Of a stretch of 6,090 nt of DNA, positions 3,634 through 6,090 are shown one piece after another. This stretch comes from Escherichia phage Lilleven. The DNA is taken from the sequence record MK629527.1; one strand, 5' to 3'. Positions within the stretch are counted from its first letter, which is position 1, and every line of letters begins with the position of its first letter. The translations under genes and the position numbers were made by a program. The notes under the pieces were generated by a model that searched no databases, was not told where the DNA came from, and saw only the letters and a list, made by a program, of their open reading frames with translations.

Positions 3634-4197
3634 ATGTATCAAAATTTTGTTACTAAGCACGATACCGCTATTCAGACCTCCCGTTTCTCTGTTACTGACA
3701 GTATCACTCCTGTTGCGCCTACTGGTGATATCCCTATTATCAATACTGGTAATATTACTGCTGAGCGTGCTGTTGTTAGTCTTTATGCTAATTTGGCCGC
3801 TGACACCTCTTCTGATGGTTCTTTTATTGTTGCTATGAAGGTTGATACTTCTCCTGCTGATCCTAACTGTGTTATCTCTGCTGGTGTTAACCTTAGCTTT
3901 GCTGGTACCTCATACCCGATTGTTGGCATTGTTCGTTTTGAGTCTGCTTCTGAACAGCCCACTTCTATTGCTGGTAGTCAGATTGAGCGTTACCCTATTG
4001 AAATGTCTGTGGGCTCTGGTGGTGTCTGTTCTGCTCGTGATTGCGTTACTGTTGATATTCATCCTCGCACCTTTGGCAATAATGTTTTTGTTGGTGTGAT
4101 TTGCTCCAGTGCTAAATGGACCTCCGGCCTTGTGCTTGGTACTATCGCTACGACTCAGGTTATTCATGAGTATCAGGTTCTTCAGCCGCTCAAATAA
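3634..4197 (+). CDS. G: Major spike protein G
   Basis: 187-aa ORF at the position of G. Shares the conserved C-terminal region with phiX174 G (VRFES.S..PT.....YP, KDCVT.D..PRT.GNNV.VG, C-terminal QVI.E...LQPLK). SD AAGGA 3623-3627, 6 nt before ATG. Confidence 0.93.
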
Positions 4198-4332: not shown

Positions 4333-5331
4333 ATGTTTGGAAGTATCATTGGAGGCATTGGCTCATCGCTGCTCGGAGGACTTGCTTCCGGCGGTATCTC
4401 CAGCCTCCTTAATAAAATGTTCAGTAAAATGCCAGAACATGCCGCTTCTTCTGCTGGTCTTACTAATGGTCAAGGTACTATTGGTATGGATACTGATGCT
4501 GGTATTCAGTCTGCTATTCAGGGCTCTAATGTTCCTCCTGCTGGTCAATTACCCGCTTCCAACACTTCTGGTGTTATGGCTGATGCTGGTAATATGATTC
4601 GTAATGCTGGCAGAGCTTTGCTTGATGGTACGATTCAGGCCGGTTCTGACAAGGTTAAAGAGGCTCTTATTGATAAGTTGGTTGGAGGTAATGATGCTAA
4701 AGACCGAGGAAAGGCAACCCGTGATTACTTGGCGGCAGCTTTCCCTGAGCTCAACCCATGGGAACGTGCTGGAGCTGGTGCTTCCACTGCCGGGTTAGAA
4801 TCTTCTGCTCAGAATCAACAAAAAGAGATGCTTAAAATGCAACTGGATAACCAGAAAGATATTGCAAAAATGCAGATGGATAACAATTTGCAGATTGCTG
4901 GTATTCAGTCTGCTACATCTCGCCAGAACACGAAGGATTCTGTTTATGCCCAGAATGAGATGCTTCAGTATAATCAACGTGAGTCGCAGGCACGCGTTGC
5001 GTCTATCCTCGCCAACACTGACCTTACGACTAAGCAGGCCACCCATGAAATTATGAGGATGGCTCTTACTCGTGCTCAGGAAACCGGTCAGCATTTGACT
5101 AACTCTCAGATTATGGCTTTGGAGAAAAAGGTTTATGCAGAAATTGGAAAAATTCATCAAGATACTCAAAATTCTCGCTATGGTAGCTCTCAAGTTACTG
5201 CCGCCGCGAAAGACGTTACTAACATGATTACTGACGCTTCTTCAGGTTTTGCTGATTGGGCTTCCCAGCAGTGGAATTCGTTCTTTAAAGATGGTAAGTC
5301 TGACGGTATTCCTCTCAATACTAGAAAATAA
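4333..5331 (+). CDS. H: DNA pilot (minor spike) protein H
   Basis: 332-aa ORF. Gly-rich N-terminus MFGSIIGGIGSSLLGG.. and long collinear matches to phiX174 H (AGIQSAIQGSNVP, TRDYLAAAFPELN.WERAGA, KMQLDNQK.IA.MQ, IAGIQSATSRQNTKD.VYAQNEML.Y.Q.ES.ARVASI, QNSRYGSS). SD AAGGAG 4319-4324. Confidence 0.93.
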   Translation: MFGSIIGGIGSSLLGGLASGGISSLLNKMFSKMPEHAASSAGLTNGQGTIGMDTDAGIQSAIQGSNVPPAGQLPASNTSGVMADAGNMIRNAGRALLDGTIQAGSDKVKEALIDKLVGGNDAKDRGKATRDYLAAAFPELNPWERAGAGASTAGLESSAQNQQKEMLKMQLDNQKDIAKMQMDNNLQIAGIQSATSRQNTKDSVYAQNEMLQYNQRESQARVASILANTDLTTKQATHEIMRMALTRAQETGQHLTNSQIMALEKKVYAEIGKIHQDTQNSRYGSSQVTAAAKDVTNMITDASSGFADWASQQWNSFFKDGKSDGIPLNTRK

Positions 5332-5358
5332 TTGTTGACATTCCTTGAACCTTTATGT

Positions 5359-5396
5359 GACTCTTGCTTCAATAAAACGAAGTAGGAGTCTTTTTT
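5359..5396 (+). terminator. Rho-independent terminator-like hairpin downstream of H; 3' arm contains the SD of the next ORF
   Basis: GACTCTTGCTTC (5359-5370) pairs with GAAGTAGGAGTC (5379-5390): 12 bp including two G.U pairs, loop AATAAAAC, followed by TTTTTT (5391-5396). The 3' arm contains AGGAG (5384-5388) and the ORF ATG follows at 5397. A perfect -35 hexamer TTGACA sits at 5335-5340. Confidence 0.6.
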
Positions 5397-5765
5397 ATGA
5401 AACCCGCTCACCGCCTTTATCATCCTGTGCTTGGTTCTTGGTTGTTTAAGTGTCCCGTTTATATTCGTTATGAGTCCCTTCATCATGGCCGCCTCATTAA
5501 GGTTCGTGCTGTTCGTGACCTTTCTCCGCGTCAGCAGTTGATTGCCAATCCTAAAAATTGCTTTGACGTTGTTATTGCTGAAATTGACGTTACTCACCTT
5601 TCTGTCACTTGGTATGATTTTCAAGCCGAAGAGTATGTCGAGTGTGATTCCGGCACTATGGAGCTTCTTCTTTCTCAGGTAAATTCTGGCGAGGTTATTC
5701 GCTCCTCCGAAGACCTGTTTGTTGATGTTGATGATATGGAATGGCTTTATGAAATTGTGGAGTAA
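5397..5765 (+). CDS. Hypothetical protein (122 aa) in the H-A intergenic region; no recognisable family
   Basis: ORF with SD AGGAG (5384-5388) 8 nt before ATG. Codon usage by eye matches the phage's structural genes (T-ending codons cgt, gtt, ctt, tct, gct, gat). Same strand as all known genes. Translation MKPAHRLYHPVLGSW...DVDDMEWLYEIVE has an acidic C-terminus and no motif I recognise. Confidence 0.5.
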   Translation: MKPAHRLYHPVLGSWLFKCPVYIRYESLHHGRLIKVRAVRDLSPRQQLIANPKNCFDVVIAEIDVTHLSVTWYDFQAEEYVECDSGTMELLLSQVNSGEVIRSSEDLFVDVDDMEWLYEIVE

Positions 5766-5768
5766 GTC

Positions 5769-5858
5769 ATGGAAACTGTTATTGGAAAATTTATTGCTCT
5801 GGCCGTTGTTGCTCTTATGCTGTATGGAATTTCTCGCTTGATTCGGAGGTTCCCGTGA
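5769..5858 (+). CDS. Hypothetical small membrane peptide (29 aa, single predicted transmembrane helix)
   Basis: Not in the ORF track. ATG 5769 is 3 nt after the stop of the preceding ORF and 6 nt after GGAG (5759-5762). METVIGKFIALAVVALMLYGISRLIRRFP: about 17 hydrophobic residues followed by a basic tail. Very short, so chance is not excluded. Confidence 0.3.
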   Translation: METVIGKFIALAVVALMLYGISRLIRRFP

Positions 5859-6031
5859 AATATTTTAGTTTTGTAGATGAACATTATGCTTACTGCCCTG
5901 ATACAAGGATTTTGCACATCACTCGCAGTCGTATTTCTGACCCTCGGTATGAGCGTTGCTTTCTTACTGACGAGGAGCATCTTGCACTTTTGGATTGGTT
6001 GAAAAATTATCCAACTTTCATTAATTCTTGA
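5855..6031 (+). CDS. Hypothetical protein (58 aa), GTG start overlapping the upstream stop (GTGA)
   Basis: Not in the ORF track. GTG 5855 overlaps the TGA of the 29-codon ORF, with GGAGG (5845-5849) 5 nt upstream. Translation (M)KYFSFVDEHYAYCPDTRILHITRSRISDPRYERCFLTDEEHLALLDWLKNYPTFINS; T-ending codon bias like the rest of the genome. Stop TGA 6029-6031 overlaps the -35 hexamer of the promoter before A. Confidence 0.35.
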   Translation: MKYFSFVDEHYAYCPDTRILHITRSRISDPRYERCFLTDEEHLALLDWLKNYPTFINS

Positions 6032-6057
6032 CAGACCTTTAAAATACCCTCTATATT
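6028..6057 (+). promoter_or_regulatory. Candidate sigma70 promoter for gene A (P_A)
   Basis: TTGACA (6028-6033), 18-nt spacer, TATATT (6052-6057): consensus -35 and near-consensus -10. Located about 35-60 nt upstream of the gene A ATG if the window is circular (position 6090 joins position 1). Confidence 0.55.
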
Positions 6058-6087
6058 GCCCTCATAGTTTCACTACGAGGGCTTTTT
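6058..6087 (+). terminator. Terminator-like hairpin plus T5 between the P_A -10 and the A start codon (T_H-like)
   Basis: GCCCTC (6058-6063) pairs with GAGGGC (6077-6082), plus inner TAG/CTA pairs (6065-6067 vs 6073-6075), then TTTTT (6083-6087). The 3' arm contains GAGGG, the likely SD for A. The 5' arm starts right after the -10, so P_A-initiated transcripts would probably lack it. Confidence 0.5.
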
Positions 6088-6090
6088 CGC

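Follow-up and report, generated by a model that had tools for sequence, protein, structure and literature searches.

Does the 29-codon open reading frame (ORF) that lies between genes H and A of Escherichia phage Lilleven encode a protein, and if it does, what would so small a protein contribute to a phage of this size? The window analyzed here, 6,090 bases long, is the complete genome of this alphatrevirus, an alpha3-type microvirus of the Bullavirinae, and its first base is the first base of the gene A ATG. The gene order read from the list of ORFs, A(/B/K/C)-D(/E)-J-F-G-H, agrees with that of annotated relatives. Gene H ends at position 5331, leaving an H-A spacer of 759 nt (5332–6090) that is 82% to 94% identical to the spacers of 13 distinct alphatreviruses. 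In Lilleven this spacer holds three conserved genes that are absent from the standard alpha3-type gene list, ORF122, ORF29, and ORF58, very probably so in the case of ORF29, the 29-codon frame.

These frames have had an uneven history in the databases. The Lilleven record lists ORF29 as a “hypothetical protein” (QBZ71503.1) and ORF58 as another, and independent gene callers list ORF29 on many contigs and in GenBank. The GenBank/RefSeq records of 13 distinct relatives have no CDS in the H-A spacer, and a record from dog faeces (MG945254) carries only misc_features described as “similar to hypothetical protein.” The ORFs had been noticed earlier, since an alpha3 H-gene record (M25640) marks a ribosome-binding site before each of them. 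No paper analyzing the ORFs of the alpha3 H-A spacer was found in the literature searched, where an older mention is possible, and no alphatrevirus expression data were found in the searchable literature. The annotation of phiX174 has been declared complete in a study that took in only ORFs common to phiX174 (PMC6883844), and a genome description from 2026 omits the three ORFs (PMC13029530).

ORF29 occupies positions 5769 to 5858 of the + strand, exactly where the preliminary description had placed it, running through 29 codons from an ATG to a TGA, with the predicted product METVIGKFIALAVVALMLYGISRLIRRFP. Peptides to be expected from this product include the N-terminal fMETVIGK and FIALAVVALMLYGISR. 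The frame had been credited with a Shine-Dalgarno (SD) sequence of its own, and this is found as a GGAG at 5759–5762 (+ strand), within the last codons of ORF122 and 6 nt 5′ of the ATG. The duplex that it forms with the anti-SD, at −5.9 kcal/mol, is the same as those of genes B, E, F, and G and falls in the top 7.7% of genome positions. The proposed coupling to both flanking ORFs also holds, and its geometry is conserved. The stop codon of ORF122 (5763–5765) and the start of ORF29 form a TAA-N3-ATG junction, and the GTG start of ORF58 (5855–5857) overlaps the ORF29 stop as GTGA, which is the sole overlap of ORF29 with another ORF; codons 1 to 25 are free of any other ORF or signal. The SD of ORF58, a GGAGG at 5845–5849 (+ strand), is made by codons 26 and 27 of ORF29, so that the arginine codons CGG AGG of the ORF29 tail double as a ribosome-binding sequence. 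With a duplex of −10.2 kcal/mol it is the strongest SD in the genome, in the top 0.4% of positions. Among relatives the ATG of ORF29 is present in all loci, TAA-N3-ATG is invariant, and the ORF29 SD reads GGAG in 23 of the 26 unique spacers, GGGG in 2, and GGAA in 1; the start and ribosome-binding site are thus conserved and comparable to those of known genes.

Relatives were gathered by way of the neighboring genes, giving a sample without bias toward an intact ORF29. It comprises 15 GenBank sequences (the window included), 15 metagenomic loci with ORF122 homologs, and 4 JGI contigs. Preservation of the reading frame in relatives had been set beforehand as a check, and the frame is indeed intact, at 28 to 30 aa, in 34 of 35 GenBank and metagenome loci. 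This result barely discriminates, however, because the frame would stay open with P = 0.91 when the observed changes are placed at random. The one exception (L039, positions 298–534; ENA ERZ13405072) is a 761-nt contig with 2.2x coverage, in which a 26-nt deletion (ATTCGGAGGTTCCCGTGAAATATTTT) makes ORF29 codons 1 to 24 continuous with the reading frame of ORF58, entered at its codon 5, so that a protein of 78 aa is encoded. This ORF29::ORF58 fusion could be a true variant hinting at a joint function, or it could be an artefact of assembly or sequencing.

The kinds of substitution that have accumulated in ORF29 are more informative than the openness of its frame. Each distinct change was counted once across the 26 unique spacers, over ORF29 codons 1 to 25, and the null placed the same base changes randomly at sites of the same base; counting in this way avoids the inflation that recombination and homoplasy bring to a tree-based count of events. 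On codon positions 1, 2, and 3 there are 11, 1, and 10 of the 22 distinct nucleotide changes. Twelve are synonymous and 10 nonsynonymous, against about 7 and about 15 under the null (P = 0.005–0.007). The summed hydropathy change is 15.3, where the null gives about 42 (P = 0.0001–0.0002), and the replacements have a BLOSUM score of 11 versus a null mean of −2.6 (P = 0.007). Within the helix all replacements exchange one hydrophobic residue for another or one small residue for another (I/V, F/L, A/V, V/I, L/F, A/S, V/A). Among the six frames, the ORF29 frame alone carries the full hydropathy-preservation signal. Coding in a shifted frame was rejected, with P of at least 0.39 in both of the shifted sense frames. 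In the codon-aligned antisense frame there is a faint signal (P about 0.013), of the kind that a middle codon position shared with the ORF29 frame should produce; antisense coding was rejected as well, on a stop in one variant and the absence of any window ORF of at least 20 aa there. To our knowledge, all microvirus mRNAs have the sense of the viral (+) strand, and promoter-like sites on the minus strand are only weak (9 of 12 matches). Pairwise dN/dS, which draws on only about 22 variable sites and is too weak a measure for an ORF of 29 codons, is 0.38 for ORF29 and 0.28 for one off-frame. Taken together, the frame-specific pattern of changes indicates that purifying selection is acting on the ORF29 peptide in its own frame.

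Selection at this site might instead be concerned with ORF58. ORF29 could be a relay whose translation is all that matters, ferrying ribosomes from ORF122 to ORF58 and opening its SD region, while the peptide itself is functionless. The arrangement of the junction is what such a device would need: the genome's strongest SD lies inside the last ORF29 codons, and in every genome but one the stop of ORF29 and the start of ORF58 overlap. The junction occurs in two forms, apart by a 3-nt indel and several substitutions, and both keep the geometry, in that the frame of ORF29 is unbroken and its end falls on the start of ORF58. Between the two forms, the ORF58 start codon co-varies with the SD, GTG occurring with GGAGG and, in the alternative form, ATG with AGGA. 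The tail sequence of ORF29 is also free to vary, existing in two unrelated versions, ...RRFP and ...[DNSG]R[TI]LK/R (the tails include RRFP, WRFP, LRFP, SRTLK, DRTLR, NRTLK, and GRILK), and the Arg-rich C-terminus suggested in the preliminary description does not survive this comparison as a conserved feature. What is kept is charge, with a net C-tail charge of +2 to +3 in 17 of 17 tail variants, spanning both versions, and charge kept across unrelated tails is not something that a relay calls for. An open frame would suffice for it, yet the changes in the helix are strongly biased toward synonymous or hydropathy-preserving ones (P = 0.0001), and codon position 2 is near-invariant. Because openness itself would be kept by chance, the constraint on ORF29 exceeds the needs of a relay, and we consider a functionless peptide unlikely.

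If the peptide is the target of selection, its physical character becomes the next question. ORF29 has a short N-terminus with a net charge of 0, a hydrophobic helix from about residue 3 to residue 21 or 25, and a basic C-tail. The mean Kyte-Doolittle (KD) hydropathy over 19 residues is 2.15, compared with 2.50 for the toxin TisB. The summed, uncorrected insertion energy on a translocon (Hessa-type) scale is marginal, at about +0.9 kcal/mol, compared with +2.0 kcal/mol for TisB. At 29 aa and a KD value of 2.15, ORF29 has the properties of a short peptide with one hydrophobic helix able to insert in a membrane. The layout of a membrane peptide, which had first drawn attention to the frame, is real as regards its hydrophobic-helix composition and charge asymmetry, but as a sign of function it is no better than chance: the + strand has 23 unannotated ORFs that reach 25 aa or more, and among these a transmembrane (TM)-like window of 19 residues is present in 14, while 10 equal or exceed ORF29 in hydrophobicity. 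Off-frame ORFs are routinely TM-like because the viral + strand is 32% T. Two off-frame ORFs, at 3647–3838 and 3842–4099, have mean KD values above 3.3. Hydropathy alone is unfit for nominating small genes in microviruses and T-rich ssDNA phages, and frame preservation is likewise unreliable.

The genes on either side of ORF29 are less ambiguous. ORF122 (5397–5765, + strand), the first gene of the cassette, is predicted to be soluble and beta-rich and belongs to no known family. ORF58 (5855–6031, + strand), the third gene, begins on the ORF29 stop codon, and the TGA that ends it is part of the −35 hexamer of a candidate promoter for gene A. Their dN/dS values are 0.19 and 0.08, respectively, compared with 1.0 to 1.9 for off-frames, and on these substitution ratios both are clearly coding. 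The predicted folds have pLDDT values of 89 for ORF122 (AF2) and 81 for ORF58, the ORF122 model being beta-rich with two helices and the ORF58 model consisting of four strands and one helix. A comparison of the predicted ORF122 fold with the PDB gave no significant relative, and no significant fold relatives were found for the cassette proteins. The idea that ORF58 is a paralog of ORF122 was rejected, their profile-profile probability being 1%.

Several relatives depart from this arrangement in one gene or another. In phiK the TGA of ORF58 is changed to TGG, extending the reading to 70 aa. One metagenomic lineage (L024 to L027; for example, L026 1501–1965) has an ORF122 of 154 aa with an acidic N-terminal extension of 32 residues (MKPLTSSEI...), and in this lineage ORF29 and ORF58 are unaltered. 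ORF122 is cut short by the loss of a single base in each of two records, the old alpha3 sequence (L003; NC_001330/X60322), at about position 190 of the spacer, and St-1 (L006; NC_012868), at about position 230. The alpha3 deletion is probably a sequencing error because it is absent from the resequenced DQ085810. Should the St-1 deletion be genuine, that laboratory strain can do without ORF122, and its ORF29 and ORF58 are still intact.

The cassette is bounded by regulatory elements on both sides. Directly 3′ of gene H, a terminator scan located a terminator-like hairpin followed by a T6 run at 5359–5396 (+ strand; 12-bp stem, 5359–5390). This hairpin has a predicted stability of −18.3 kcal/mol (z = −3.15, with 0 of 200 shuffles equally stable) and is kept across relatives, some of which (e.g., L036 and ID21) have altered stems that still pair. 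It is likely the equivalent of T_H, gating transcription into the cassette. Its 3′ arm holds the AGGAG SD of ORF122, and by terminating most transcripts and sequestering this SD, the hairpin may keep cassette expression very low. A promoter scan upstream of the cassette returned no convincing promoter. In phiX174, T_H stops about 70% of transcription (bioRxiv 10.1101/2020.03.05.979765), and since the block there is only partial, some read-through is to be expected here; by analogy, fewer than half of the late transcripts should extend past the post-H hairpin into the cassette.

At the downstream edge, a sigma-70-type sequence, TTGACA-18-TATATT (6028–6057, + strand), with 11 of 12 matches, is likely, from its sequence and position, the P_A promoter of gene A. 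It is kept in most relatives and partly deleted in NC35. It is followed by a second hairpin, GCCCTCATAG...CTACGAGGGC, with a T5 run (6058–6087, + strand), just 5′ of the ATG of gene A, where the numbering of the circular genome starts at position 1. This pre-A hairpin has a stability of −14 to −16 kcal/mol in nearly all relatives, with compensatory changes in ID62 and ID32. In NC35 a deletion of 29 nt (L007, about 700–730, aligned to window positions 6037–6065) removes the −10 element of P_A together with the 5′ arm of this second hairpin, and expression of gene A in this phage may depend on read-through transcripts. The two cassette ends (5335–5396 and 6028–6090) share one layout, consisting of TTGACA, about 18 to 25 nt, a hairpin, a T-run, and an ATG, the upstream copy being without a recognizable −10. 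Judged by this repeated order of elements, the two ends look as if an ancestral P_A/T_H region had been duplicated or split and had received the cassette as an insertion.

The reading that we favor, with some reserve, is that ORF29 is a gene for a translated membrane microprotein within an accessory cassette. Its parts differ in strength. From the substitution pattern and the conserved translation signals, we are fairly confident that ORF29 is a real translated gene; that its product forms a membrane-inserted helix is likely, if less assured; and that it acts jointly with its cassette neighbors is a tentative suggestion. In this scheme late transcripts reading past the post-H terminator would bring the cassette, and ORF29 would be translated either by ribosomes finishing ORF122, across the TAA-N3-ATG junction, or by ribosomes binding the GGAG SD. 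Ribosomes ending ORF29 on the (G/A)TGA overlap would then move straight to ORF58, with its SD in the tail codons of ORF29, and termination-reinitiation of this kind would make the three proteins in fixed proportion. The ORF29 product, of 29 to 30 residues, would insert in the inner membrane with its N-terminus out and its C-terminus in, the basic tail being cytoplasmic by the positive-inside rule. It could serve as a small partner or anchor for ORF58 and/or ORF122, or for a membrane protein of the host. Gene order, coupling, and the single fusion contig of 2x coverage offer a weak hint of a partnership between ORF29 and ORF58. The role would be accessory and non-essential, for example, keeping out competing phages or tuning the infected cell, and any one named phenotype, be it exclusion or lysis timing, is unlikely when taken singly.

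Precedents for a membrane microprotein of this kind come from the bacterial host. KdpF (29 aa), MgtR (30 aa), MgtS, AcrZ, and PmrR are single-pass peptides of about 30 aa that bind a larger membrane protein, and small membrane proteins of enterobacteria often share a transcript with their partners and are coupled to them in translation. ORF29 resembles KdpF, MgtR, and AcrZ in size, predicted topology, and proposed co-translation with partners. It differs from the KdpF/MgtR class in having no sequence relationship to it and in that the cassette encodes no membrane-protein partner, because ORF122 and ORF58 are both predicted to be soluble. By analogy, an action of the KdpF/MgtR type, in which the peptide would bind a larger membrane protein, is the most likely for ORF29. 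Among the small membrane microproteins already known from phages, the peptide itself is likely an orphan addition.

A peptide with this layout might also act alone, along the lines raised in the preliminary description, damaging or depolarizing the membrane in the manner of a type I toxin or tuning the lysis that is mediated by protein E. TisB is a validated membrane peptide of 29 aa, and ORF29 resembles TisB and the other type I toxins (Hok, Ldr, Ibs, and ShoB) in its length class, its one hydrophobic helix with flanking charges, and a hydropathy about that of TisB. The phage lyses its host through a membrane protein, so membrane physiology matters to it. Type I toxins differ in their setting, since ORF29 lies in a coupled three-gene unit of a lytic phage, not in a solitary toxin/antitoxin locus, and has no evident antisense RNA partner. 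Membership in a curated type I toxin family was rejected, as ORF29 has no NCBIfam match at E ≤ 10, and none of the searches of NCBIfam, Pfam, PHROGs, and PADLOC connects it with a family of type I toxins, holins, or lysis proteins.

The comparison with lysis protein E is similarly instructive. E is encoded in the same genome at 1917–2144, out of frame (+1) within the scaffolding gene D, and according to the record annotation this single protein carries out microvirus lysis. The E protein inhibits MraY and has an essential proline in its helix. ORF29 is like E (Microvir_lysis, PF04517-type) in being a small microvirus protein with a single N-terminal TM-type helix followed by a basic region. 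The E of Lilleven has 75 aa and an LLLP sequence in its helix, whereas ORF29 has 29 aa, stands free in the H-A spacer, has no proline in its helix, is much less hydrophobic, and is without a Pfam match. An assignment of ORF29 to the E family was rejected on the missing profile match, the wrong location, and the missing proline. The candidates holin, pinholin, and antiholin were rejected too, as the window contains no endolysin or muralytic domain and the neighbors of ORF29 have no Pfam or PHROG family. The tight coupling of ORF29 to two soluble proteins suggests a joint function rather than a solitary one, and phages of the phiX174 and G4 types lyse normally without the cassette. A stand-alone toxin or lysis modulator is, on balance, improbable.

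The position of the cassette invites comparison with two phenomena described in other phages. The “reduction effect” of phiX174, which inhibits superinfecting phage, maps to the 3′ part of H, the 63-nt H-A spacer, and the 5′ part of A (PMC8310164). This is the same genomic slot as that of the cassette, but in phiX174, whose spacer is without ORFs, the effect is credited either to the segment of DNA or to fragments of H. No alpha3 data on the effect were found in the literature. The moron cassettes of tailed phages are similarly compact, clade-specific, and family-less sets between core genes, with hairpin and promoter flanks. Classical morons have their own promoter and belong to temperate dsDNA phages, whereas ORF122-ORF29-ORF58 has no convincing promoter and sits in a 6-kb lytic ssDNA phage. 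A more ambitious version of the favored reading would have the TM microprotein born de novo from the T-rich spacer and anchoring or activating ORF58 and/or ORF122 at the inner membrane in a protein-based device for superinfection exclusion or host takeover, as an alphatrevirus-specific counterpart to the phiX174 “reduction effect”; we regard this full combination as a long shot.

It is very unlikely that ORF29 is not a gene but an accidental frame, with the spacer kept for reasons at the level of DNA or RNA (replication, packaging, or transcript stability) or through recent ancestry: synonymous diversity is low (pS 0.14, versus 0.44 and 0.31 in the neighboring ORFs), hydrophobic ORFs arise commonly by chance on the + strand, and the GenBank records of the 13 distinct relatives lack a CDS here, but nucleotide conservation is ordinary (12th percentile of the genome's 60-nt windows, with a third-position diversity of 0.106 versus 0.131 in gene A), the RNA structure is not unusual (z = +1.06), the variation follows a period of 3 nt in register with a single frame, and the SD and junction geometry are conserved. 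A cis element marked by exceptional nucleotide conservation was rejected on the percentile, and a structured RNA on the z-score.

The genomes of phiX174, G4, and alpha3 (Bullavirinae) are among the best studied of all, yet the alpha3 branch carries three conserved genes under purifying selection, one of them for a membrane-type microprotein, that the RefSeq annotations omit in every alphatrevirus reference genome examined. At the least, alphatrevirus annotations should gain ORF122, ORF29, and ORF58. A functional ORF29 would provide a minimal system, open to genetic manipulation, for studying the action of phage microproteins on the host membrane, and would explain the roughly 650 extra bases that alpha3-type genomes carry despite strong size pressure. 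Were the de novo anchor or exclusion reading true, the gene count of a textbook phage group would rise from 11 to 14.

The cassette has a narrow distribution. Among 50,697 phage records, one set of 26, all from alphatreviruses, contains ORF122, ORF29, and ORF58; IMG/VR matches are to reference genomes only, and complete E. coli genomes and plasmids gave no match. Searches of Pfam, PHROGs, NCBIfam, and PADLOC with the three proteins returned nothing usable, and no homolog of known function was found for any cassette gene. ORF29 has no match in Pfam even at E ≤ 1 and none in NCBIfam or among PDB sequences at E ≤ 10, and the PADLOC defence profiles match none of the three proteins at E ≤ 10. The PHROGs matches of ORF29 are only weak (E of 0.026 to 0.14) and are to families of unknown function or labeled “membrane protein,” with no lysis family among them. 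The ORF122 profile matches three clusters among 1.84 billion representative proteins. The sole divergent ORF122 relative found is a protein of 129 aa (P0042) on one 1,962-nt Logan contig, with 36% identity (E = 1e-15), which has the motifs AHR..HP..G.WLFK.PVY and LANPKNC in common with ORF122.
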